Assembly (NCBI GenBank): GCA_045651945.1
Contig: JAZRTH010000049.1
Location: 1-36,220 of the forward strand
Reading direction: 5' to 3'
From: Thermoguttaceae bacterium
GTDB lineage: Bacteria; Planctomycetota; Planctomycetia; Pirellulales; Thermoguttaceae
Length of the DNA: 36,220 bases
The notes under the pieces are model-generated. The model was not told the DNA's origin, ran no database searches, and saw nothing but the letters and a program-made list of their open reading frames with translations. Position 1 is the first letter of the stretch; each line of letters opens with the position of its first letter. Shown one piece after another: positions 5,928 through 36,220 of the stretch. The translations under genes and the position numbers were made by a program.

Positions 5928-7268
5928 TCAAACTTCCGGCAGTTCATAGCCCTTTCGACGCTCTCGGTCAAGCAAGGCATTGGCGTCGGCGGAATCGAAC
6001 ATTTCCTTTTCCGGATCCCACTTGAGGGAATGTCCGACGTATCGGGCGATATTAAGCATGTGACACAGCGACGCGGTTCGATGTCCGTATTCGCAGTCGT
6101 CAAGGGGCGTTCCGCCAAACTTAATGCACTCAATCCAGTTGCGAATATGGGCGTTATGTCCCTTTCCGCGCTCCTTGTCCAACAGTTCCGGAACTTCGAT
6201 CTTTGTAGTTTCGTCTACCAGTTCGTTGGGATTAGCGGTAACTTTGTCGAACCAGACTTCCATTTTGCCCTTTTCTCCAAAGAAGATTCCGCCGCCGCGA
6301 TTGCCTTCTTTGCCGTCGTCGTCGCCCAGTTTGACGACAATGCCATTTGCGTACTTAAACGCCAGATGCGGCTGACAGCAAATCTTGTTGCCGCGCGTCG
6401 CAACTTCCGGCTTGTCGTACGTTGGCGCTTCGAGTTTGTCGCCTGTTACAATAATTTCAACCGGTCCGGTGTGCTGCATTCCCAACGCCCATTGAATTTT
6501 GTCCAGCCCATGAGTTCCCCAACCGGTCATTTCACCGCCGGAGAACGGTCGGAACGACAGCCAGCCCGGCTTGCCGCGCGGGATATAGAGTTCCGGGTGA
6601 TACGGAACCAGCGGCGCGGGACCGCACCAGCGTTCCCAATCCAGACCCGCCGGGACTTCTTCCCCTTCCATGTTATAGAACCAGGGAGACTCGTAATTGG
6701 CGGCAACGACTTTGGAAATCTTGCCCAGCCCACCATCGCGAATAAACTTGCAGCTGCGATAGTCGGTTTTTAAACTTCGCATCATCGAGCCTGCCTGGAA
6801 GACGACGCCCGCCTTTCGCGCCGCTTTAACCATCAGCCGTCCTTCAGCAATGGTCAGCGACATGGGCTTTTCCGCATAGATGTGTTTTCCCGCCTGGGCG
6901 GCGTGAATGCAAATCAGAGATCGCCACTGTTCCGGCGTTGCAGTAAGAATCGCGTCGACGTCTTTTCGATCAAGGATTTTTCGATAGTCTGAAACCGCGT
7001 CCGTATCGGGATTGCAGCCCCATTTCTTCGCTCTGTCCTGAGCGCGAGGCAGATAGACGTCCGCGCAGCCAACGACTTTTGCCGTTTCAATTTGGAACGC
7101 CTGATTCATGTCGTACGTTCCCTGACGTCCAACGCCGATGCCGGCAATATGAACCTTGTCGTTTGCGCCCGGCTTGCCGTCTTGCGCCAAAACGCTGCGC
7201 GGAATAAGCAGCGGAACGCCAAGAGCCGCTGCTGTCATTTCTAAAAATTCTCGTCGTGTTGATTTCAT
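5928..7268 (-). CDS. Gfo/Idh/MocA family oxidoreductase, Tat-exported
   Basis: Tat signal MKSTRREFLEMTAAALGVPLL. N-terminal Rossmann segment IAGIGVGRQG. EKP motif (YAEKPM) typical of this family. Confidence 0.88.
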   Translation of the reverse strand: MKSTRREFLEMTAAALGVPLLIPRSVLAQDGKPGANDKVHIAGIGVGRQGTYDMNQAFQIETAKVVGCADVYLPRAQDRAKKWGCNPDTDAVSDYRKILDRKDVDAILTATPEQWRSLICIHAAQAGKHIYAEKPMSLTIAEGRLMVKAARKAGVVFQAGSMMRSLKTDYRSCKFIRDGGLGKISKVVAANYESPWFYNMEGEEVPAGLDWERWCGPAPLVPYHPELYIPRGKPGWLSFRPFSGGEMTGWGTHGLDKIQWALGMQHTGPVEIIVTGDKLEAPTYDKPEVATRGNKICCQPHLAFKYANGIVVKLGDDDGKEGNRGGGIFFGEKGKMEVWFDKVTANPNELVDETTKIEVPELLDKERGKGHNAHIRNWIECIKFGGTPLDDCEYGHRTASLCHMLNIARYVGHSLKWDPEKEMFDSADANALLDRERRKGYELPEV

Positions 7269-24187: not shown

Positions 24188-25534
24188 TCAACAGTCCCAC
24201 GGACCGTAAACGGCTTTGACGGTCATGGATTCGTCGTTGGCGGTGAGATAATAAACCTTGTACTTTGTTCCGCCGTCGTAGGCTTTGACGACAACGTGTC
24301 CGCCGCGTTTGACGATTTCGTTTGTCCATGGCTGTTGGTTGATGGTTTGAATTTCGTTTGGATTGTAAACCGTTGGGCAGATAAGGCGGTCGCCTTGATA
24401 CAGTTCCTGAGACGTCATGGAAGGCAGCGTTTTCATATTGACCTGGGAACGGCTCCAGACGTTTTGAACGTAGACGTGGGCTTGCAGTTCCTTGACGAAT
24501 TCCGGACGCATGGCGTCTTTAAATCCGTGATGGTTCGCCTTACAGACGTGAACTTTCCCAACGATCTTTCCCGTCATGGCTTCGTAGCCGATGTCTTTCC
24601 CGCCGTTGTCTTTTACAACGCCGCTATAGTCGCCGGCGGTGAAGAACCGGAACTTCCCGTAAGAAAGACGCAACCCGATGCTGAACAGGTTCTCGTTCGC
24701 GCCGGGTCTGTCGTTGTGCGGGTACTTGAGAAACAGGTTTTCCGTCGCCAGCTCAACGTCCGGATTGAACTCGTCTTCCGGCTTCGGGGCTTCCGTACAC
24801 AGCGTTCCGTTTCCGCAAACGTTAAGAATCTGAAACTGTCCCTTGAACTTGTCCGGCGACTTTTTGAGAACAATCTGATTCCCGCGTCCGACCACAAACG
24901 GGGTTCGTTTCAGCCCGTTCGTCTTTTCCTGATACTGGACGAACTTGAGCCAGTTGTGAATTTCGCCCTGACGCATCGCGGTAACAGGCGCGGTGTAATC
25001 TGGATACGAGCGGTCGAAGACCTCGTCAAAATGAATGAACTCCGCCACTTGAGCCAAGCCGGAAAGACGGTAATCTTCCCCGCGCCCGGACGTCATTTCA
25101 TTGTGTTCGTAATTGTTTCCGCAATGGTCGCCATGGAAATGCGAACACATCATATAATCGACGTGATCCCCAGCCGGATTGACGCGCTTGATATACCGCG
25201 CCACCCATTCCCCGGCGTGCCTGGTATTGTCTGGCAAGACAGGAATGCCTTGCCGCGGGGGAACGTCGCCGGTGTCGATAAGAATCGACGTGCCGTCCGG
25301 GAAAATATGATAGCACGATTCCGACAGCCCCGTATAGATGAAATGCAGATCGAGGTCGCCCTCTTTCCAGCCTGCGTACGGCTTGCCGGTTTCCGGACTT
25401 TCGGACGGCGTCGGCTCAGGAACGGCGTCTTCCGCCCGGCAAGACTCAACGCCTCCCAGCTGAGAAATAACAAACGGCGCGGCTATGCACTGACCCAAAA
25501 ACAAACGGCGGGATAATGATTTGCGTTTACGCAT
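24188..25534 (-). CDS. MBL-fold metallo-hydrolase, Tat-exported
   Basis: Tat signal SRRLFLGQCIAAPF. HxHxDH motif (SHFHGDHCG). Later His residues (ANHHG). Confidence 0.8.
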   Translation of the reverse strand: MRKRKSLSRRLFLGQCIAAPFVISQLGGVESCRAEDAVPEPTPSESPETGKPYAGWKEGDLDLHFIYTGLSESCYHIFPDGTSILIDTGDVPPRQGIPVLPDNTRHAGEWVARYIKRVNPAGDHVDYMMCSHFHGDHCGNNYEHNEMTSGRGEDYRLSGLAQVAEFIHFDEVFDRSYPDYTAPVTAMRQGEIHNWLKFVQYQEKTNGLKRTPFVVGRGNQIVLKKSPDKFKGQFQILNVCGNGTLCTEAPKPEDEFNPDVELATENLFLKYPHNDRPGANENLFSIGLRLSYGKFRFFTAGDYSGVVKDNGGKDIGYEAMTGKIVGKVHVCKANHHGFKDAMRPEFVKELQAHVYVQNVWSRSQVNMKTLPSMTSQELYQGDRLICPTVYNPNEIQTINQQPWTNEIVKRGGHVVVKAYDGGTKYKVYYLTANDESMTVKAVYGPWDC

Positions 25535-27321: not shown

Positions 27322-27500
27322 TTGAAAATACTCCTTGGTAAAATATAAGGGTAAATGAGTTTATACTTCTACGTGAACTCTTATGTTCAATTATACCCAC
27401 AAAAAATTTTTTTGGAATACCCTTGTCAGAAATTATACAATAATATTCTGTTTACTTTGGAAAAATGAAGGCAAAAGACGTCTGACGCCAACGAAACGCC

Positions 27501-28088
27501 TTATCGGTTGTAGACGACATTGTTCAGTCCGTAAATAAATCCGTAGTTTTTTCCATTGATAACATTGCTTATTCCGCTAACCGTTCCGTTGTTATTGCCG
27601 GTTATAACGTTTCCGGTCCCTTCGACTACCCCGTAGTTATGCCCTTCCAAGACATTATTCACCCCGCAAATTCTGCCGTAATTGTTGCCAACAATCCGAT
27701 TGCAGCTGCCATTTACACATTCATTAGGAGCGCCAGAAAGGCGGATATTAGCGCTGCAGACATTGTAAACGGCGGGATATACCACCGGAATGACGGGAAT
27801 GACAGGAACCACGGGGATCACCGGAACGACAGGAACGACCCGTCTTACCGGTCTGGAAACGCTGCGGGTTACGCTGGTTCTGGTTTGGCGCGGACGGCTG
27901 ACAGGACGGCTCCCGGATGACGCTGGACGCGGCTGTGCCGGACGAGGCGGAGTCGGATAAGGAGTCGCTTGACGCGGCGGAGCTGGAGGCGGCGTTGTTT
28001 TCGGTTTGAGCGTAATTCTGCCGTCTGGGTGAACCTGATATTCGCCATTCCCGGAAGAGCTGCTGTTTTGATTTGAATAGTTAGTCAT
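27501..28088 (-). CDS. Pro/Arg-rich protein with (V/I)PV triplet run and 4-5 x 15-aa Asn/Gly repeat (predicted beta-solenoid)
   Basis: Last gene of the operon. Its ATG overlaps the upstream stop by 8 nt (ATGACTAA). aa 31-83 are Pro/Arg/Ser-rich. aa 84-104 read VVPVVPVIPVVPVIPVIPVVY. aa 119-193 are repeats of the form G-x-N-x-G-x-[VI]-x-G-x-x-N-V-[IL]-x. Confidence 0.75.
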   Translation of the reverse strand: MTNYSNQNSSSSGNGEYQVHPDGRITLKPKTTPPPAPPRQATPYPTPPRPAQPRPASSGSRPVSRPRQTRTSVTRSVSRPVRRVVPVVPVIPVVPVIPVIPVVYPAVYNVCSANIRLSGAPNECVNGSCNRIVGNNYGRICGVNNVLEGHNYGVVEGTGNVITGNNNGTVSGISNVINGKNYGFIYGLNNVVYNR

Positions 28089-28368
28089 TGGATTGATTTT
28101 GTTGTTTCACAGGATTTTCAATAACCGGCAATTGTTCCTGCAATTCCTGAATTTGCTGTTGAAGCTCGATTTTATCGGAATACAGTTTACATGTAAAATA
28201 CAGGGAAACAAATAACCCTATTGCAAATAGAGCTGTTAAAATGCCCAGCGCCCATGTAAGACACAAATGTTCTGCCATATCTTGACAAAAGTCTTTTTGT
28301 TCGCGAGACATTTCTCCCCAATTGTCTCCCGCCATATACATGGCAATCATTCGATATAAACGTTCCAT
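28081..28368 (-). CDS. Small single-pass membrane protein with C-terminal coiled coil (95 aa)
   Basis: TM helix LTWALGILTALFAIGLFVSLYF followed by KIELQQQIQELQEQL. It starts 2 nt after the JAB-E1 stop and overlaps the next gene by 8 nt. Confidence 0.7.
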   Translation of the reverse strand: MERLYRMIAMYMAGDNWGEMSREQKDFCQDMAEHLCLTWALGILTALFAIGLFVSLYFTCKLYSDKIELQQQIQELQEQLPVIENPVKQQNQSND

Positions 28369-28370
28369 TT

Positions 28371-30245
28371 CTATTCCTCCTCGGTTGACATATCTTTACT
28401 TTCTGACGTCTGAGCGTTTTCCGTACTGATATGGATATTTGTCGTAATCGTCAGCGGATGGTTAAACCACAGATCGTCTTCTGTACAAGTGTTGCAAATC
28501 AGCGTAAGCTGGGTCAAACGGTTGAGCGCGCGCGGCGTGTAATTGGGATTGTCCCGATTGAGAATGTCCAGCGCCAGCTTGACCGCAATTATCGTAATAA
28601 AGTCGATGTCGGCTGCAATTCCCGGCTCAAACGAGACTTTTTCCAGCTCGGCTTCCGTCGTGTAAAAGCGTCTGTTTTGAGTTACTCTTTGAGAAACGGG
28701 AGCAATGCACTTCAGATAGTCAGCGTAGTCCGGCATGCCCGTTGGAAGACAATAGAAAATCTCGCCGGCGTGAGCGCGCTCCCAACAACCGACCGAAATA
28801 AAGGCTGAATTCAGCTCTTTCGCCAGCTGGCAGGCGTACAAGTCGCCTTCCCGATTGTCCGCCCCGCCGATAAAGACCGTGTTCTCGTCACAGAAGTCGT
28901 TAAGAAGCTGCAGCGGGGCGCGTTCAATGGCGTCGTGAACTGTCAGAACTTCCGCATACGGATTGATTTGCTCAATTCGATCTTTCAGACAATCCGTTTT
29001 ATATCTGCCAACGTCCAGCGCCCCGCACTGATGGCGGCAAAGATTATGATAACCCAGAATATCAGAGTCAATCAGAAGAAAGCGCCCAACTCCAGATCGG
29101 GCAAGCTCCAGCGCCGCCAAAGAACCTACAGAACCGCAGCCAATCAAAACCGCCTTTTTAGACAGCATGACGTCCGATTCCAAAATGCCGACGTTTCGAG
29201 AAAACACGTCCAGTTTAAGACTATAGCGATCCAAGACGCACTCTTTGAGATCCAACAAAGAAACAAGAACCAGGCCATTCTCGTTACGATAGCCCAGAAC
29301 AGAGCGTTCCGTCAACCCTTCTTCCTGGAAAATCGCTTGAGCGGGTTCTGTCAACATGGAAACGTTAAACCGGGGACGACCCTGCTGTGACGTCAACGCC
29401 TGCTTGAGCAGTTTTAGATTTAATGCTCCGTTTTCGATTCCAGAAGCGTCGTTCTGGAACTGAATCGCCGATGCGTCCTTAAAAGGCGATTCTTCAAAGA
29501 CGCATCCGATTTTTTCCACCTTTTGAATCAAACCGGAATCCGGCGCCACGACGTTGAAGTAGTTCGTTTCCGGAGAATAAATCCCGTAAAGCGGTCCGAC
29601 GTAATTCTCTTCAAGACTCGTCGGAAACGCAGCCGTCGGATTTCGTCGATAGACGTTATCCGCCGCTTCGTCAGAGTCGTCTTCGGATTCCGTGAGCTCG
29701 TCGTCCTGCGGTTCTTCTTCAGAATCAGAGGGTTCCTCCGGGCGATAATACCGCAACTGAAAATACTTTTCCGGAATGACTTCGTCGCCCGTCAAAAACG
29801 GAACTTTTTCATAAACCGGAAGCCCTGTTTCGTCAATCGTTACACGATAAACCGTCAGTCGGAATTTCGGATCGAAATTGACCAGGCAGGAAATCGCTCC
29901 GTATTCGCCGTTGAGGGCTGCAAACTTCAGATTCGTCCCGTCGTCTACGGCGGAAAAGACGTCCATGCTGCCGGGATGGCGGTGCCACAATCCCAACACG
30001 CGCGGCGGAATCTGGTACTGTTTCGCCGTTACATTGGCTGTGTAATTGACATAGAACTCATCGTATTCAAAATACGCCCATTTATTGATGGATTTGCCGC
30101 CCGGCGGAACGACGTCTGTTACAACCCACGTCCCGTTAGGGAAAAGATGCCCCAGCAGAATCCCGCCGGTTTCAACGGGATCTTTGTCAATTGCTTCGGC
30201 AACGATGGCGTTATACGCGCGGCTGGAAAAAACAACTGCGTTCAT
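28371..30245 (-). CDS. JAB/JAMM metallopeptidase fused to E1-like (ThiF/MoeB-type) adenylation domain
   Basis: N-terminus: ETGG (E25) and WHRHPGSMDVFSAVD, a complete H-x-H-x7-S-x2-D JAMM motif (aa 88-101). Acidic linker at aa 169-196. C-terminus: VLIGCGSVGSLAALELARSGVGRFLLIDSDILGYHNLCRHQ, DVGRYKTD and GGADNREG, typical of the E1/ThiF Rossmann fold. Confidence 0.88.
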   Translation of the reverse strand: MNAVVFSSRAYNAIVAEAIDKDPVETGGILLGHLFPNGTWVVTDVVPPGGKSINKWAYFEYDEFYVNYTANVTAKQYQIPPRVLGLWHRHPGSMDVFSAVDDGTNLKFAALNGEYGAISCLVNFDPKFRLTVYRVTIDETGLPVYEKVPFLTGDEVIPEKYFQLRYYRPEEPSDSEEEPQDDELTESEDDSDEAADNVYRRNPTAAFPTSLEENYVGPLYGIYSPETNYFNVVAPDSGLIQKVEKIGCVFEESPFKDASAIQFQNDASGIENGALNLKLLKQALTSQQGRPRFNVSMLTEPAQAIFQEEGLTERSVLGYRNENGLVLVSLLDLKECVLDRYSLKLDVFSRNVGILESDVMLSKKAVLIGCGSVGSLAALELARSGVGRFLLIDSDILGYHNLCRHQCGALDVGRYKTDCLKDRIEQINPYAEVLTVHDAIERAPLQLLNDFCDENTVFIGGADNREGDLYACQLAKELNSAFISVGCWERAHAGEIFYCLPTGMPDYADYLKCIAPVSQRVTQNRRFYTTEAELEKVSFEPGIAADIDFITIIAVKLALDILNRDNPNYTPRALNRLTQLTLICNTCTEDDLWFNHPLTITTNIHISTENAQTSESKDMSTEEE

Positions 30246-30310: not shown

Positions 30311-31183
30311 TCACATGTGGTCGAATTCGCTTCGTGACATTTCTCCGGACAGCGCCAGTTCATAGCACATCAGCCATTTAACAGCCCAAAGCAAAACCGA
30401 CGCTGCAGACGTCTCCGCACGACCGCGACCGATACTGTAATCTTGTTGACGCGACGTACACAAAGACGTACCGTCTCCACTTCCAATAAGATGATGAGGC
30501 CGCCAGCCGCTCATGGAAATCAGCTGATCGATAGACGGCTTGCGGAGATACACGTGAACAGAGCCTCCCCAATTGCTGTTGCTGGGATGGTTGTTATCGT
30601 ATATCGCTTCCAGAGTCCAGTCCCATCCGTTGTCTCCTAAAACGCCGGGACGCACCTTCCCTGTCCACGACATCCGACCGTCAGGCAAAAAACGATACGT
30701 AAACTGCGGAAACGCCATCTTCATCGCAGCCACCTCCGCATGATACCGATCCGGCTCTCTTTGGTACCACTGAATTAAAGCCGCCAGTTTGCCCTTTGGA
30801 ATAACCAACGGCTGATTCGAGTCGTTAACTCTCTCGCCATTTTGATTGACGACCGTTCCGCCCGGATTGAGCCGAATCGGCTCGTCGTTGAGCATCATCT
30901 GCTTGATTTTCTGACGCAATTCTTCGTTCTTTTTCTTCTCACGGTCGCTAACGTTCGCCAGCTTGCCCCGTGGAATGACCAACGGCTCATTCGCGCCATT
31001 AATGGTTTCGCCGTTCTGGTCGATAACGCGCCCGCCAGGAACAAGGCGAATTGGCTCATCTTTCAACAACGCTTTTTTGAGCGCCTGGGGCGACGGAACC
31101 GGAAGGGTAACGTTACCGTTGTTGAGGATCGTGAACTCCGCGTCGATAATGTCGCAATCGTCGTTTTCTGATGACATTCCCAT
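30311..31183 (-). CDS. Two N-terminal tandem repeats plus a C-terminal E2/UBC-like domain (candidate)
   Basis: First gene of the operon. aa 35-75 and 93-135 are ~70 percent identical repeats (DEPIRLxPGGxVxxQNGE...PLVIPxGKLA). aa 140-290 show a helix, four strands, an HP motif, then a helix. The motifs are NNHPSNSNWGGSVHVYL and RPHHLIGSGDGTSLC. The E2 assignment is pattern-based. Confidence 0.5.
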   Translation of the reverse strand: MGMSSENDDCDIIDAEFTILNNGNVTLPVPSPQALKKALLKDEPIRLVPGGRVIDQNGETINGANEPLVIPRGKLANVSDREKKKNEELRQKIKQMMLNDEPIRLNPGGTVVNQNGERVNDSNQPLVIPKGKLAALIQWYQREPDRYHAEVAAMKMAFPQFTYRFLPDGRMSWTGKVRPGVLGDNGWDWTLEAIYDNNHPSNSNWGGSVHVYLRKPSIDQLISMSGWRPHHLIGSGDGTSLCTSRQQDYSIGRGRAETSAASVLLWAVKWLMCYELALSGEMSRSEFDHM

Positions 31184-31338: not shown

Positions 31339-31366
31339 TTGATAATCGACAACTTCAGACTATAAT
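31339..31366 (+). promoter_or_regulatory. Sigma70-type promoter for the plus-strand secreted-protein pair
   Basis: TTGATA (31339-31344), 16-nt spacer, TATAAT (31361-31366), about 190 nt upstream of the ATG at 31559. GAAGGA lies 8-13 nt before that ATG. Confidence 0.5.
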
Positions 31367-31558
31367 ATTAGTAATAAAACTATAAGGCGTCAATCCTTGT
31401 AAGCGTTATTGGTTTTTGAGGTTTCTTTATATTGTGCGTGGATAATCTCCGATTAAATCGTACTTTAAAGAAAGTACTCCTTTTTTCAGCTTTCTCTGTA
31501 AGCCTTTTCATGCTCCTCAGAGAACGAACGTTACCGATTAAAAGAAGGAAACAGAATT

Positions 31559-33448
31559 ATGTTGTCGCTAAACCGCAAGAACATTGGATTTTTGTTGAGC
31601 GTTGCAGCTCTTTTGACTGCCGTTTCGTTTACTACTGCTGTTAATGCAGACAGTAAAACTTCCAAAACGCGCGATAATAAGACCGTAGTCGTCGGCGCCC
31701 CATCTACAAATCTGACGCCGGCTCAAAAGTTCTTCGAGAACATGTCTCCAGATGAGTTCAGAGATCCCGTTGCAATGGACGACTTTATCACCCGGTTCCC
31801 GGATTCTCCCGAAGCGAATGCCGTGTTTGCAATTCGTTTTTCACTTTTGGAAAGATTCCCTACCATCGAAGGCTATAACGATTTTATTAAAAAGTACCCC
31901 GGCAGACTTCAAACGCAAATTGCCATTCAGAAAGTCTTCGACCTGTATTGCAATCAGAACTGCGCTGCCGGATACTACGAGTTTATTAAATTATACCCTG
32001 ATACCGAACAATCTCTGGTTGCCATGCTCTACATTCAAGAGATTATGTTCCAGTACGCTTGTCAGCAGGACAAGGTTGAAGAATACGACGCTTTCATTGA
32101 AGCGTTCCCCAATGCGATACAAGTTAACGAAGCGAGAGAGCGGGCAATTTTAAAAGCTAAAAAGCTGGAAACCGCAGAGTTGGAAAAGCTGTTTAACGAA
32201 GATAAAGATTTGGAACGAAAAAATGTTGAAAAGTCTTTGTACGAAAAAAAACAGAAGTTTGAAAATGATTGTTATAAATATTCTGGATTGCCAGCTTCGT
32301 CTAATGTCAGCGAGACTCAAAAAGTTTTGCAGCTTTTCAGCTTAGATCGCACCTACCAGGTATTGCGAGACGTTTACGGTAAATACAATCGCGATAATTA
32401 TCCAGAGGACGACAAAAAGAAAGATAAAATCGAAGAATACCTTAAAGATATTCAAAACAGCATTGATAAGGTCGTACTGAATAATACGATAGAGAAGGCT
32501 ATCAGTCAGGTTATCGATACGATTAACGCAAATCATCAGGCGCTTATTAATGAATTGGAAAAAGTGTCTAATGACATCGGCGCCAAGCTGGATAACATTG
32601 CCAACAAATTGGACAACATTGCCAGCGTTCAAAAAGAAGTGTTGGCAAATCTTAAAAATGGTTTCAATGAGCTTCATAGAGATTTAAGAAAAATCAACAG
32701 CTCAATTAAAGAAGCCAATAAACGCCTGGAGGTTTTGCATACTTTAAATAAACGTCTTGACAATATCGCTGTTCAAATGCAAAGCATGGTTTTGTCAAAT
32801 AACTCTGTGCCAATGCCGAGCTTGGAAAGAATCAACAAATACGCGGAAAAATTTAAACCGGATATGCCCTTTGTTGAATTTCGCGGCCAATCCGCAACAC
32901 CCATGGATCAATTGGAAAATATTGCCCGACGCGGTTGTGGACTTCTTAAGGACGTCAGCTTCAGCTTTGGCAACATTAAAAATAAGATAATCGAAACGAT
33001 AACGATATGGAAAACCGATTATCCAAACAACAGCACGTCAGTTGGCAGATTTCTTGGAAAGCTTGTGGAAGGAACCGTTCGTCTCGTTCCTGTTGTCGGA
33101 CCATATATTGCCCCGGTAGCCGGCAATTTGACGCAGTATTTCATTGACGACCTGTTTATCCCTTACATTTCAGAATTGATTGACATTGTTAAGGACGACA
33201 TTCAATTGTGCATTGAAATCTTTGAAGAATACAAAGAAAAGCTTATAAGATTCGTCAAGGACATGTCAGACGGAAAACTTCCCCCTGCTTTGCAGGAGAT
33301 TTTTAACAAAAAAATGGAAACCCTCAAAGACATGAAAGAGGCCGTAACTGTCATTCGAGATAATTTTATCAGGCTGCTTAAAGACGTTGCCGAATTCTTT
33401 GATCTTGATCCCACAGTAATTTTGTATGAGATTTGTTACCTTGACTGA
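31559..33448 (+). CDS. Secreted protein: four xxFIxxYP helical repeats, long coiled coil, unknown C-terminal domain
   Basis: Signal peptide MLSLNRKNIGFLLSVAALLTAVSFTTAVNA. Repeats DDFITRFPDSPEA, NDFIKKYPGRLQT, YEFIKLYPDTEQS and DAFIEAFPNAIQV. Heptad-like Asn/Lys/Leu-rich centre (KLDNIANKLDNIASVQKEV). AT-rich codon usage. Confidence 0.7.
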   Translation: MLSLNRKNIGFLLSVAALLTAVSFTTAVNADSKTSKTRDNKTVVVGAPSTNLTPAQKFFENMSPDEFRDPVAMDDFITRFPDSPEANAVFAIRFSLLERFPTIEGYNDFIKKYPGRLQTQIAIQKVFDLYCNQNCAAGYYEFIKLYPDTEQSLVAMLYIQEIMFQYACQQDKVEEYDAFIEAFPNAIQVNEARERAILKAKKLETAELEKLFNEDKDLERKNVEKSLYEKKQKFENDCYKYSGLPASSNVSETQKVLQLFSLDRTYQVLRDVYGKYNRDNYPEDDKKKDKIEEYLKDIQNSIDKVVLNNTIEKAISQVIDTINANHQALINELEKVSNDIGAKLDNIANKLDNIASVQKEVLANLKNGFNELHRDLRKINSSIKEANKRLEVLHTLNKRLDNIAVQMQSMVLSNNSVPMPSLERINKYAEKFKPDMPFVEFRGQSATPMDQLENIARRGCGLLKDVSFSFGNIKNKIIETITIWKTDYPNNSTSVGRFLGKLVEGTVRLVPVVGPYIAPVAGNLTQYFIDDLFIPYISELIDIVKDDIQLCIEIFEEYKEKLIRFVKDMSDGKLPPALQEIFNKKMETLKDMKEAVTVIRDNFIRLLKDVAEFFDLDPTVILYEICYLD

Positions 33449-33499
33449 TTTCGTTCCTTTGTCGTAATAGTTTAAGCATTTGCACTATTAAACAATATC

Positions 33500-35215
33500 A
33501 TGATGAATCGATTTTTACCAACCATTTTACTCATCGCGCTGTTGGGAGCCGGTAGCGCTTTTGCCCAACAATCCCCAGATGAAGCGTCTGGCAAATTGTT
33601 AGGTTACATGAGCGCATCGGCATCGTCAGGAGAACTGAAAAGCGCTACTATGACGTGTACACGGGACGGAGGAACGTTTGAAAAATTGGAGAATGACGAC
33701 TCTGTTCTTAAACTGTCTCGAGGCGATTTTATAGAATTTGGCTTCACGCTTCCTGCAACGGCATATAACGTTGACGTTACAATTAAATATCTCGATGAAA
33801 ACGAGGGGAATCCTTGTTTCATTCGCTGGAACAACGTCAATCCTCCAGAAGAAAAAGCTGTGGTTAAACCGCCCAAGAAAATAGAGAATCTGTGTTACAA
33901 AACCTACACAATTATTGAACCGCCCCGTTTTAATACAATCCGAGTTGTCGGCGAAGGAAACAATGGGCTGAAATTTTATAATATTCAGGTTAAATTTAAT
34001 TATGACAAACCGGCGTCACAGCCCACCAAAGATAACTTTAAAATTACGCTTGACTCGCCAGACCCGACCAAATCCATTGACAATGTCGATTTAACATTCA
34101 AGTGGACTGGAACAGGCAAACCTCCTGTCGACGGCGGATTTATTGAGCTGCAATATCGAGACAAAGACGATTGGAAAACTGTACCAGGAGCTGAATATAT
34201 CGATATTGAGCCTGAGGGTTCTGCTAATGGCGAATTTGTCTGGAAAAAACATGGATTAACTGAAATGCCGGATTTCAAAGTTATCTTTACTGCCGGACCG
34301 TCGCCGATTAAAAATTCTAACGCTGCGTTTGATAAAGGCGTTTACAACGAATCTTTGTATTGGATTCAACAGGCGCTGCAGAGTTTTCCTGACAAGAAGG
34401 AATATAAAGACCGAAGAATCGAATGTCTCAGAGCGTTAAATCCGTTTAATACAGAATGTCGCAAAATGGGAGATGTAATATCCGTTGAAATCGACGGGGT
34501 TGAGTTTAAATTTGTCTATATCGCGAATGATAAGGATGATTTTTTTATGGGTCCCTTATCGAATGACAATAAAAAGAACAGCGACGCTTTTCGACATCCC
34601 GTCAAGTTATCCAGAGGATATTGGATTTTGAATCAGGAAGTTTCCCGGAAACAATGGGATATAATCATGTCAAGTAATCCGAGTTTTCTTTTTTCAAAAG
34701 AAACCAACCCCGAAAAGCTTCCTGTTCAGAATGTTTCATGGGAAGATTGTAATGAATTCTGTAAACAATTCTACGACAGATTCCGGGATTACTATAAGGA
34801 TGATAAAATCAAATTGACAACGACGGTTTCGCTTCCCACTGAGGCGCAATGGGAATTCGCTTGTCGAAAAGGGGGACCGCTTTCATCAAAAGCCATCCAT
34901 TACAATACAAATAAATTACTTGGCGCGCCTCCCACAATTGGCGTTACGGATAAAAGCGCCAACTCGTTAGGCGTTTTTGGCATGCAGGGCAACGTTGCAG
35001 AATGGTGCTATGACGGTTACGCTCCATACCAAAAAACCACTCAAAATGATCCCAAAGGAAATGAAAAAACTTCATTGAAAGTTGTCCGAGGCGGAAGCTG
35101 CAACTCAAGTCAGGACGATTGTCGAGCTACCGCAAGAGACAAAAAAAATAAAGACGAAAAAGACAAGTATATTGGCTTCCGCTTTGTTGTAAACTTCGAC
35201 AATATTCAACAATAA
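33500..35215 (+). CDS. Secreted protein with C-terminal FGE-sulfatase (SUMF1/EgtB/PvdO-type) domain
   Basis: Signal peptide MMNRFLPTILLIALLGAGSAFAQ. C-terminal motifs VSWEDCNEFCKQF, GVFGMQGNVAEWCYDGY, VVRGGSCNSSQDDCRATARD and IGFRFVV. The N-terminal ~330 aa are beta-rich and unassigned. Confidence 0.8.
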   Translation: MMNRFLPTILLIALLGAGSAFAQQSPDEASGKLLGYMSASASSGELKSATMTCTRDGGTFEKLENDDSVLKLSRGDFIEFGFTLPATAYNVDVTIKYLDENEGNPCFIRWNNVNPPEEKAVVKPPKKIENLCYKTYTIIEPPRFNTIRVVGEGNNGLKFYNIQVKFNYDKPASQPTKDNFKITLDSPDPTKSIDNVDLTFKWTGTGKPPVDGGFIELQYRDKDDWKTVPGAEYIDIEPEGSANGEFVWKKHGLTEMPDFKVIFTAGPSPIKNSNAAFDKGVYNESLYWIQQALQSFPDKKEYKDRRIECLRALNPFNTECRKMGDVISVEIDGVEFKFVYIANDKDDFFMGPLSNDNKKNSDAFRHPVKLSRGYWILNQEVSRKQWDIIMSSNPSFLFSKETNPEKLPVQNVSWEDCNEFCKQFYDRFRDYYKDDKIKLTTTVSLPTEAQWEFACRKGGPLSSKAIHYNTNKLLGAPPTIGVTDKSANSLGVFGMQGNVAEWCYDGYAPYQKTTQNDPKGNEKTSLKVVRGGSCNSSQDDCRATARDKKNKDEKDKYIGFRFVVNFDNIQQ

Positions 35216-35342: not shown

Positions 35343-36220
35343 CTACGCTTTTTCCCAGGTTGTCGTTTTGTCCGGGCGGTCTTCCAGTTTGACGCCCAGT
35401 TCTTTCAGCGCGTCGCGAATCAGGTCGCTTGTCGCCCAGTCTTTGTTCTGTCGGGCGTTGGCGCGAATCCGAATAATCAGGTTCATCAAGCCGTCAACGA
35501 GCGAGTTGTCTTCGGCGCTGTCGTCCTGACCGGCTTTCTTGGGCGGTTCGAGGAACAGACCCAAAGCCCCCGCCAGTTCGCGGAACGTCTTGACGCCCTG
35601 AACGAGCTGCGCGACGGCTTCCGGCGTTGGAGCGGTTTCCAGTTTCTGGTCGTCGATGAACTTGTTGAGCTTCTTGAGCAGGTCGAACAGCTCGGCGATT
35701 CCCGCGCCGGTGTTGAAGTCGTCGTCCATGGCGTCGAGGAACGTCTTTCGGCTTTGCGCGACCGCTTGCAACAGTTCCGACTGACCCGGATCGAACTCGC
35801 CGGCGTCGCGGGTTTTGGCGAATTCCGTCTGATAGAATTTCGTTCCCGTAACGCGGTCAAAGCGTTTGAAGAATCGATAGAACGCTTCCAAGCCGGTTTG
35901 GACTTCTTCGATGCGTCTGACGGAATAGTCAATCGGACGTCTATAATGAGTTGACAGCAGGAAGAAACGAATCGTTTCGCCGGCAAACGTCTTGAGCATG
36001 TCGCGGAACGGAACAGAGCCTTTGGACTTGCTGATTTTACCGGCTTCCTGCGAGGCGATGTCGCCTTCTTTGGCTTCCGGAGCGTCTGCCGCCTTGGTCT
36101 TGCGTCCGCCGACTTTTCCGATTTCGTCCGACGCCTGCATCAGACCGTTGTGCATCCAGTATTTGACGTACGGTTTGCCGCTGCGCGCTTCCGACTGGGC
36201 GATTTCGTTTTCGTGGTGCG
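35343..36220 (-). CDS. cysS: Cysteine--tRNA ligase, C-terminal part (5' end outside the window)
   Basis: The reading frame is open to the window edge. It contains HHENEIAQSEA, the KMSKS-type loop KISKSKG and LRFFLLSTHYRRPIDYS, characteristic of class I CysRS. Confidence 0.9.
   Translation of the reverse strand, partial: HHENEIAQSEARSGKPYVKYWMHNGLMQASDEIGKVGGRKTKAADAPEAKEGDIASQEAGKISKSKGSVPFRDMLKTFAGETIRFFLLSTHYRRPIDYSVRRIEEVQTGLEAFYRFFKRFDRVTGTKFYQTEFAKTRDAGEFDPGQSELLQAVAQSRKTFLDAMDDDFNTGAGIAELFDLLKKLNKFIDDQKLETAPTPEAVAQLVQGVKTFRELAGALGLFLEPPKKAGQDDSAEDNSLVDGLMNLIIRIRANARQNKDWATSDLIRDALKELGVKLEDRPDKTTTWEKA

Follow-up and report, generated by a model that had tools for sequence, protein, structure and literature searches.

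A stretch of 36,220 nucleotides (nt) of contig JAZRTH010000049.1 (assembly GCA_045651945.1), referred to here as the window and derived from a gut metagenome-assembled genome (MAG) of Thermoguttaceae (Planctomycetota), encodes a protein of 624 amino acids (aa) in which a disordered acidic linker joins an intact JAMM metallopeptidase (JAB domain) with an E1-like adenylating enzyme. The gene is part of a four-gene operon, whose other genes encode an E2-like protein, a small membrane protein and a protein with a hairpin tag. In our judgement there is about an even chance that this operon encodes a ubiquitination-like protein-conjugation system without a cyclase or a β-grasp ubiquitin-like protein (Ubl), in which the JAB domain cuts, the E1 activates short units ending in GKLA that are carried by the E2-like protein, and the E2 ligates them.

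The 624-aa open reading frame (ORF) was in frame through the linker without stop codons, and the plus-strand translation of the same interval was riddled with stops. A database search returned 1587 homologs of the protein, and both enzyme matches were far above chance with the Pfam and PADLOC profiles. All named residues were verified by script on the translated ORF. The JAMM pattern E...HxHx7Sx2D was made by E25, H88, H90, S98 and D101, as had been read from the sequence in an earlier note, and these residues were 100% conserved in 78 JABs of the family. The Pfam family Prok-JAB (PF14464) matched residues 9-103 with an E-value of 1.5e-5 and 25.3 bits against a gathering threshold of 25.0, which is a borderline pass. 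The JAB domain alone matched the Cap3-type 'JAB' models of the cyclic-oligonucleotide-based antiphage signaling system (CBASS) in PADLOC (7.5e-10) and the NCBIfam model TIGR02256 (ICE_VC0181; 6.7e-4), and it also matched the C-terminal JAB of the PADLOC E2-E1-JAB models. Within the linker that follows it, the acidic stretch EEPSDSEEEPQDDELTESEDDSDEAAD covered aa 170-196.

The E1 module was recognized by Pfam ThiF (PF00899) over residues 359-580 (E-value 9.4e-22, 77.7 bits versus a threshold of 28.1) and by the PADLOC Cap2 'E1-E2' models at up to 5e-26. The best NCBIfam match was the 6A-MBL cap2_3 model (NF058523; E-value 4e-29), whose 101.7 bits were far below the cut-off of 320 bits. Among PDB sequences, the E1 domain matched MccB (2.8e-12), TcdA, PaaA, UBA5 and Cap2, with a weak match to the E1 domain of ATG7 (E-value about 3e-3). 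In 198 E1s of the family, G369, C370, G371, D393, D395, N401, R404, H405, Q406, C407, K416 and D463 were 100% conserved. The nucleotide-binding elements listed in the earlier note were present as described (GCGSVG at 369-374, D393/D395, NLCRHQ at 401-406, R414 and K416), except that DNREG is located at 463-467 rather than at 462-466. The JAMM and ATP-binding residues, whose possible misalignment had been raised in the same note, aligned correctly in real profiles.

Of the two cysteines proposed as crossover-loop nucleophiles, C499 at the loop base was present in 176 of the 198 E1s (89%) and stands as a candidate, whereas C513 was kept in 5 (2.5%) and was ruled out as the catalytic cysteine; C487 was found in 172. 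Tyrosines were retained at Y498 (198/198), Y507 (197/198) and Y528 (197/198), the last within the crossover-region motif N-R-R-F-Y-T, which is conserved and disordered. Since no crossover cysteine was universal, a thioester relay is uncertain, and the candidates for the E1 step are C499, an invariant tyrosine, or the direct hand-over of the adenylate to the E2. In addition, C370 of the G-loop ('GCGS') and C403 and C407 of the segment 'N-x-C-R-H-Q-C-G', all near the nucleotide site, were invariant in the 198 E1s. The usual Arg-finger motif of E1s is NLxRQ, which contains no cysteine. These cysteines could bind metal, sense the redox state or serve as an alternative nucleophile.

An AlphaFold2 model of the 624-aa protein, built on 75 homologs, had a mean predicted local distance difference test score (pLDDT) of 74 and a predicted template-modeling score (pTM) of 0.47. 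The confidence was good for the JAB, the E1 and most of the middle region between linker and E1 fold, while disorder was seen at 170-199 (the acidic linker), at 267-288 (an insert) and at 521-541 (part of the crossover region). The top Foldseek match of the full-length model was 9ea4, a structure of the JAB-E1 fusion BubCD (E-value 3e-13, about 613 columns), at a root-mean-square deviation (rmsd) of about 25 Å, which implied that the domain arrangement differs.

The middle region (aa ~200-352) had been described in the earlier note as lacking any assignable motif, and no match to it was found in Pfam (19 members included), PADLOC or PDB sequences; a PDB profile search with it gave noise alone (E-values above 0.6). 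An inactive adenylation remnant, the alternative that the note had named, was ruled out, as hhalign against the E1 domain gave a probability of 0.2%, no β-α-β alternation was seen and the ThiF match was limited to 359-580. A degenerate E2 or JAB was ruled out in the same way (0.1-0.3%). The region had further been taken for a piece placed between two enzymes, a view that had to be abandoned. The unfused relatives of 375-450 aa, which cover about 65% of the query, all start with this same region, and the middle domain therefore belongs to the E1 as its own N-terminal domain and is not a spacer made by the fusion. A profile of the domain found 82 proteins among 1.84 billion protein representatives, every one of them in the family of E2-JAB-E1 operons. 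In the model its first four β-strands were separated from three further ones by a helical insert (aa ~255-315) that is variable and partly disordered; the conserved core comprised about 90 residues in two β-rich parts around the insert, which was deleted in the homolog P0054. With the full-length model, Foldseek aligned the Cap2-substrate structure 7to3_A over 459 columns (TMq 0.39), compared with about 240 for E1-only Cap2 chains. The Cap2 'linker domain' directly before the E1 fold is folded like the N-terminal domain of ATG7 and serves to position the E2, with a disordered loop at the site of the ATG7 insert (10.1101/2022.03.31.486616). Judged from the model, the middle domain may be equivalent to this E2-positioning linker. 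Given the long alignment to 7to3_A and the known function of the Cap2 linker, a role in positioning or docking the E2 or the substrate is plausible by analogy to Cap2 and to the N-terminal domain of ATG7.

The gene of the cognate E2-like protein lies upstream of the JAB-E1 gene on the same strand with a gap of 65 nt. Residues 147-278 of this protein matched the PADLOC CBASS 'E2' models (1.8e-9), and PF26395 (E2-CBASS) was precomputed on most of its homologs. H199, P200, C242 and T243 were invariant in 44 E2 homologs, the E2 core was modeled at a pLDDT of about 90, and the Foldseek matches to ubiquitin E2 variant (UEV) and UBC folds were weak. Ahead of the core, the protein carries two tandem units with 57% identity to each other, each ending in GKLA (aa 73-76 and 131-134). 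L133 and A134 were invariant among the E2 homologs, the last GKLA being 5-6 residues ahead of the E2 core. Residues 73-77, at a pLDDT below 50, were the sole low-confidence segment within the N-terminal region of the model, and such low confidence at the inter-unit GKLA is consistent with an accessible linker. The number of units in homologs ranged from 1 to 4. Among the E2s and E2-like paralogs, the motif and the E2 cysteine were strongly coupled (67 with both, 6 with the cysteine and no motif, none with the motif and no cysteine, and 22 with neither; p=1.8e-16).

Two related loci bore on the nature of these units. In L003/L016 (Thermoguttaceae, GCA_045586185.1), the two 49-aa tandem units of an E2 paralog (L003 5176-5982) were identical (STNPAALTEAQRRIREALQNGRPIPLNSNGDVTGRTGQPTLTIPPGKLA), suggestive of concerted evolution as in polyubiquitin. 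In L084 (a Solirubrobacterales MAG), a separate 85-aa gene (6140-6397), which lies 3 nt upstream of the E2 gene, encoded a single unit ending in ...IEIPAGKLAF-stop. Other small E2-HMM-positive ORFs (matched by the E2 hidden Markov model, HMM) were rejected as free modifiers because they were mostly frameshifted or split genes, L084_8 being the sole clean case. No other small gene that could act as a Ubl was universal across the 81 loci (the window and 80 related loci), and no gene for a β-grasp Ubl was present in the operon. A precedent for a precursor joined to its E2 is known from the Bub system of Citrobacter, in which the JAB of BubCD cuts the neighboring Ubl-E2 fusion BubAB after a conserved Gly and the E1 of BubCD activates the exposed C-terminus (PMC11601596). 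From the coupling to the cysteine, the tandem and identical units, the L084 gene, the lack of another universal small gene and the analogy with BubAB/BubCD, we infer that the GKLA units are the likeliest candidate for a JAB-processed, E1-activated modifier.

Cysteine-less E2-like paralogs, in which the cysteine is replaced by D, E, S or a gap and GKLA is missing as well, were found in L022, L029, L032-L035, L037, L042, L043, L086 and others, often fused to the JAB N-terminus or placed between JAB and E1; these paralogs resemble accessory subunits of the UEV type. The L003/L016 locus, just upstream of pfk, was expanded by a 615-aa JAB with low-complexity and transmembrane (TM) regions, an AAA+ ATPase and a 678-aa ankyrin-repeat protein.

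In the proposed mechanism, the JAB would cut the E2 pre-protein after GKLA (after A134 and possibly A76), by which one or two units of about 50 aa with a helix-plus-hairpin build and a ...GKLA carboxyl end would be freed. The E1, probably a homodimer like its relatives, would adenylate the end of the unit with ATP, and the unit would then move to Cys242 of the E2, either directly or via an E1 nucleophile (C499 in most members, or an invariant tyrosine as in Bub). The E2 would ligate the unit onto a target, with the E1 N-terminal domain presumably placing the E2 or the substrate in the way known from the Cap2 linker and the N-terminal domain of ATG7, and the JAB may also undo the conjugation. 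Membrane proteins encoded downstream, which carry an N-terminal hairpin motif Φ.Φ..(D/Y)G.Φ.R, would be the likely targets or partners. The idea in the earlier note that the JAB exposes a C-terminus for the E1 to adenylate is thus reasonable and was partly supported, by intact modules on one chain, the Bub precedent and a candidate precursor next door; the fusion itself, from which the idea had been drawn, says little on the mechanism.

Several observations weigh against this mechanism. The modifier was assigned entirely from gene context. The units had no recognizable β-grasp fold (pLDDT 63-73, no Foldseek match), so that a β-grasp identity was supported neither by the model nor by Foldseek, and they end in Ala. 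Characterized Ubls, and cGAS of V. cholerae, end in Gly. Six of the 73 cysteine-containing E2s had no GKLA motif, and a conserved ...GI C-terminus, which is a possible alternative activated end, was a feature of most E2s (44 of 96), although not of the E2 of the window. On the side of the E1, the best PDB sequence matches, MccB and TcdA, are non-conjugating enzymes, and the crossover loop has no universally conserved cysteine among the 198 E1s. The isolated middle domain matched no Cap2 HMM at E≤1 and no PDB sequence, and at a pTM of 0.47 the geometry between the domains of the model is unreliable.

Some of these observations would be accounted for by a CBASS-like system, in which the C-terminus of another operon protein, for instance an effector or a membrane protein encoded downstream, or the ...GI end of the E2 is conjugated, the JAB mainly removes conjugates as Cap3 does, and the GKLA units serve for docking or autoinhibition. 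The JAB, E1 and E2 were all nearest to the CBASS Cap3, Cap2 and E2-CBASS models, the units are not β-grasp folds, the GI end is exact in those 44 E2s, and Cap2 itself activates the disordered C-terminus of a protein that is not a Ubl (10.1101/2022.03.31.486616). We nevertheless consider this reading rather unlikely. No downstream gene family was universal and the C-termini of the downstream proteins were not conserved in the 81 loci, the E2 of the window lacks the GI end, and no cyclase or other signaling enzyme was found in the window. The coupling of GKLA to the cysteine and the identical tandem units are better explained by a precursor.

A second explanation is peptide modification, in which an E1 with a clamp-like N-terminal domain adenylates a peptide C-terminus for cyclization or for sulfur or amide chemistry, with the E2 as a scaffold and the JAB as a leader peptidase. 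It would fit the PDB matches, since the best were MccB (2.8e-12) and TcdA, with PaaA among them too, as well as the short, peptide-like candidate substrate and the crossover loop without an invariant cysteine. In MccB and PaaA, too, the E1 fold is preceded by an N-terminal domain that binds peptides, but the middle domain had no sequence match to either of them. In the HMM searches, the scores were 90-102 bits for Cap2 and 6A models versus about 50 bits for MccB. The HP...C site of the E2 was invariant and lost only in clearly accessory paralogs, and no tailoring or export genes of the type found with ribosomally synthesized and post-translationally modified peptides (RiPPs) recurred in related loci. 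We regard this explanation as improbable.

The fused ORF was found in 4 of the 81 loci, whereas JAB and E1 were separate ORFs in the canonical order E2>JAB>E1 in the other 77, and about 19 other fused clusters from other lineages were present in a large protein collection. The middle domain and E1 of the window were 64-65% identical to unfused Thermoguttaceae E1s and 41-53% identical to fused Bacteroidales proteins. Since the window E1 is closer to unfused than to fused E1s, neighboring JAB and E1 genes have been fused more than once. By these sequence comparisons, the fused form is a polyphyletic variant, rare and recurrent, of a layout in which the JAB and E1 genes are adjacent and separate. 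Its rarity and polyphyly mean that the fusion adds little on mechanism beyond the operon itself. That it arose as an artefact (a frameshift, a mis-assembly or a chimeric contig) or marks a decaying gene, as the separate ORFs of the 77 loci might suggest, is scarcely credible, because the same 624-aa architecture recurred at 92% identity in independent assemblies and samples (P0001, L009-L012) as well as in the fused clusters elsewhere, the catalytic residues were all intact and the linker was in frame without stops.

As an architecture, the JAB-E1 fusion is already known, and the novelty attached to it in the earlier note was not upheld. E1-like proteins fused to JAB at either end were described in 2006, with the JAB N-terminal to the E1 in operon type 6e (Iyer, Burroughs, Aravind; PMC1779556). 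Type 6e is now Bub, and the JAB-E1 fusion BubCD of Citrobacter (type '6E.1') is represented by the structures 9ea4, 9ea5 and 9eav (Ye et al. 2024, PMC11601596). The 624-aa protein resembles BubCD in having an N-terminal JAB and a C-terminal E1 on one chain with near-identical JAMM numbering (E28/H91/H93/D104 in BubCD; E25/H88/H90/D101 here). As in Bub, the E2 gene is an immediate neighbor, and its product has an N-terminal extension that might be cleaved by the JAB. Bub E1s have no crossover cysteine and use an invariant tyrosine instead (PMC11601596). The E1s of the present family may resemble them in this respect, with invariant or nearly invariant tyrosines in the crossover region and no universal cysteine there, although C499 at the loop base is kept in 89%. 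However, the sequence similarity to BubCD was marginal (E-value 5.8e-4), weaker than that to MccB, UBA5 and Cap2. BubCD, of about 456 aa, has its JAB docked on the E1 with nothing between, while here an acidic linker of about 35 aa and a domain of about 150 aa intervene. The Bub E2 uses Ser/His and an oxyester in contrast to the invariant Cys242 and HP motif of the present E2, and the Bub modifier has 1-3 β-grasp domains ending in Gly, in contrast to the non-β-grasp units of about 50 aa ending in GKLA. BubE (DUF6527/PF20137) was found neither in the Pfam matches of the flanking proteins nor as a recurring gene of related loci.

The likeness to type II CBASS was in the enzymes, for which Cap2/Cap3-type models were the closest HMMs (E1 5e-26; E2 1.8e-9, PF26395; JAB 7.5e-10). 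As with Cap2, there is no β-grasp Ubl, and a non-catalytic domain directly precedes the E1 fold. The pattern of fusion differs: CBASS joins the E2 to the E1 and leaves the JAB free, whereas this operon joins the JAB to the E1 and leaves the E2 free. No CD-NTase or effector was found among the neighbors, and the only 'Cyclase' match (E-value 0.047) fell on the E2 domain. The middle domain had no sequence similarity to the Cap2 linker, and no conserved crossover cysteine matched C548 of Cap2. The cap2_3 triple fusion of the 6A and 6A-MBL (metallo-β-lactamase, MBL) systems (Iyer et al. 2006, row 6a; NF058523) also has JAB and E1 on one chain, but the match reached 101.7 of the 320 bits, its JAB is C-terminal and not N-terminal, the E2 here is unfused, and no MBL gene was adjacent. 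With ATG7, the family shares an N-terminal accessory domain, with a variable insert in both, followed by a homodimer-type E1 without an α-helical Cys domain, although the sequence matches to the ATG7 E1 domain were weak (about 3e-3). Unlike the canonical E1s with an inactive adenylation domain (BilD, UBA1), the protein had no second Rossmann-type domain. Membership in Bub, type II CBASS or 6A-MBL was ruled out because each fails on defining features, and none of the operon types 6a-6e of 2006 fits. The system mixes Cap2/Cap3-type enzymes with a Bub-like layout in which the precursor is fused to the E2, an arrangement that would have evolved twice if the GKLA units are the modifier. The operon fits no described bacterial ubiquitination-like pathway (CBASS/Pycsar/MBL type II, Bil, Bub).

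A survey of 185,579 species-representative genomes turned up the E2-JAB-E1 operon in at least 152 genome stretches, mostly in gut and rumen Bacteroidales and scattered in Planctomycetota, Clostridia, Lentisphaerae, Victivallis, Thiomargarita, Anaerolineae and Actinomycetota; the spread beyond Bacteroidales is horizontal. The order E2>JAB>E1 was kept in the 80 related loci, bar a few truncated contigs. An FtsK/EssC-like ATPase (about 900-1450 aa; Pfam FtsK_SpoIIIE, 9.5e-27) was encoded in 29 of these 80 loci, including all 20 loci with paired WXG100-like genes. Such clusters resemble type VII secretion systems (T7SS), with two tandem WXG100-like proteins of about 95 aa (Pfam WXG100 1.3e-4, below the cut-off) and conserved helical proteins (clusters c4, c8, c10). 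They include L018, L027, L029, L033, L040, L041, L045, L052-L059 and L067, mostly of Bacteroidales, a group from which T7SS is not known. T7SS variants have been published from Actinomycetota and Bacillota alone, and none of them contains E1, E2 or JAB enzymes (PMC11217815); a literature search found no published account of a T7SS with these enzymes in Bacteroidota. No paper on the E2-JAB-E1 operon family was found either, although absence from the searchable literature is no proof. A subtype of 16 loci had a multi-pass SH3_3 protein downstream and, in both Pfam-annotated contexts (L001/L002 and L006-L008), a DnaJ-domain protein upstream.

Carriage of the family on phages or plasmids was essentially nil in the collections searched. 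Among the phage-collection records, a single one, GenBank MT836827.1 ('Bacteriophage sp.', 10.4 kb, human feces), had an E1 homolog of the family (827-1678, 49.6% identity over aa 331-607); the record is unannotated and may be a misassigned bacterial fragment. The Gloeothece plasmids NC_014534 and NC_011737 carried JAB-only homologs with 41-46% identity. In the Bacteroidales loci L014, L020, L039 and L050 (cluster c12), a protein of about 305 aa, tyrosine-recombinase-like by the motif ...RHTWA...LGH...RIY, was encoded directly upstream of the E2, which hints that some versions of the operon ride on integrative elements.

Table 1. Features of the operon in the window and of the proteins it encodes
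Feature	Position in window	Strand	Basis or remarks
JAB-(N-domain)-E1 fusion gene	28371..30245	minus	ATG-to-stop ORF, 624 aa; Pfam ThiF and Prok-JAB; PADLOC and NCBIfam; AlphaFold2; Foldseek
JAB/JAMM metallopeptidase domain, aa 1-165	29751..30245	minus	E25, H88, H90, S98, D101; PADLOC, NCBIfam and Pfam matches
Acidic disordered linker, aa 166-199	29649..29750	minus	pLDDT <50 at 170-199; variable in length and sequence in fused homologs
Family-specific N-terminal domain of the E1 module (middle domain), aa 200-352	29190..29648	minus	Found at the N-terminus of unfused E1 relatives
E1-like adenylation domain, aa 353-606	28428..29189	minus	G-loop GCGSVGS, D393, N401-C407 (NLCRHQC), K416, D463; crossover region ~500-540 with Y507 and NRRFYT motif (Y528)
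Cognate E2-like protein gene, 290 aa	30311..31183	minus	UBC-like core aa 135-290, H199-P200, catalytic-type C242; PADLOC, PF26395, model
Two tandem N-terminal E2 units (~49-58 aa; aa 29-76 and 77-134), candidate modifier or pro-peptide	30782..31099	minus	Both end in VIP(R/K)GKLA
95-aa single-pass membrane protein gene	28081..28368	minus	Hydrophobic segment aa ~40-60; abuts the JAB-E1 stop codon; 76-aa form in L009 and L012
195-aa protein gene	27501..28088	minus	N-terminal 'YQVHPDGRITLKP' hairpin motif, Pro-rich region, C-terminal β-roll-like repeat; 8-nt overlap with the 95-aa gene
Promoter-like site upstream of the E2 gene	31365..31393	minus	Weak consensus match alone; σ70-type rules may not hold in Planctomycetota
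Terminator-like hairpin 3' of the 195-aa gene	27477..27489	minus	Weak: shuffled sequence has at least as many such sites as the region

Downstream of the E1, the related loci mostly encoded membrane proteins, 64% with a predicted TM segment. In a survey of the first 60 residues of the genes 3' of the E1 in related loci L012-L091, the motif Φ.Φ..(D/Y)G.Φ.R was present in 30% of the downstream proteins compared with 7% of other neighbors (odds ratio 5.5, p=1e-17). Its carriers were otherwise unrelated, as exemplified by 'YQVHPDGRITLKP' of the window and by 'MAIDQYGRIIRR', 'YHISDDGKIYRV' and 'YTVNPDGSVTRD', and the motif may be a docking or target tag. A further hairpin-peptide example was EYQVHPDGRITLKP, and the N-terminus of the window E2, 'FTILNNGNVTL', fits the motif as well. 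The 195-aa protein of the window also had a weak match to Pfam LbR_Ice_bind (6e-6).

In a close relative (92% identity), the four-gene cassette sits between cysS and pfk, and the cassette of the window is likewise placed between these two housekeeping genes. In the window, two plus-strand genes (31559-35215) lie between the E2 gene and cysS (35343-36155, cut by the window end), one for a 629-aa coiled-coil protein with a weak ZorA-like match (1.5e-4) and the other for a lipoprotein-like protein of 571 aa that has an FGE-sulfatase/GldK-like domain (9.2e-29). As cysS adjoins E2 in L009-L011 (and in L012 by ORF calls), the pair amounts to an indel difference. Three genes from the operon on the minus strand, 24188..25534 encodes a 448-aa MBL-fold protein with an HFHGDH motif and a twin-arginine translocation (Tat)-like signal peptide (SRRLFLG). 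It was ruled out as part of a 6A-MBL-like system by its non-adjacent position, its Tat-like signal and its lack of recurrence in related loci, and is probably unrelated to the operon. L009 had an 839-aa PATR-repeat gene between pfk and the MBL-fold gene, which is missing from the window.

Taking these contexts together with the GKLA units, a fuller form of the conjugation reading can be drawn, in which a peptide of about 50 aa, carried in 1-4 copies on its own E2 as a polyubiquitin-like precursor, would be attached to hairpin-tagged membrane proteins without any β-grasp protein, about a third of the loci lying in T7SS-like clusters of gut Bacteroidales. In this full form we think it unlikely.

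The interest of the finding lies in a widespread and apparently undescribed operon family, and less in the fusion itself. The E1 of this family carries a domain that was found nowhere else among the 1.84 billion representatives. The system is small, with four genes in the window, and the T7SS-like clusters and hairpin-tagged membrane proteins offer concrete candidate targets. If the GKLA units are the modifier, Ubl-type conjugation would extend to a peptide without the ubiquitin fold.

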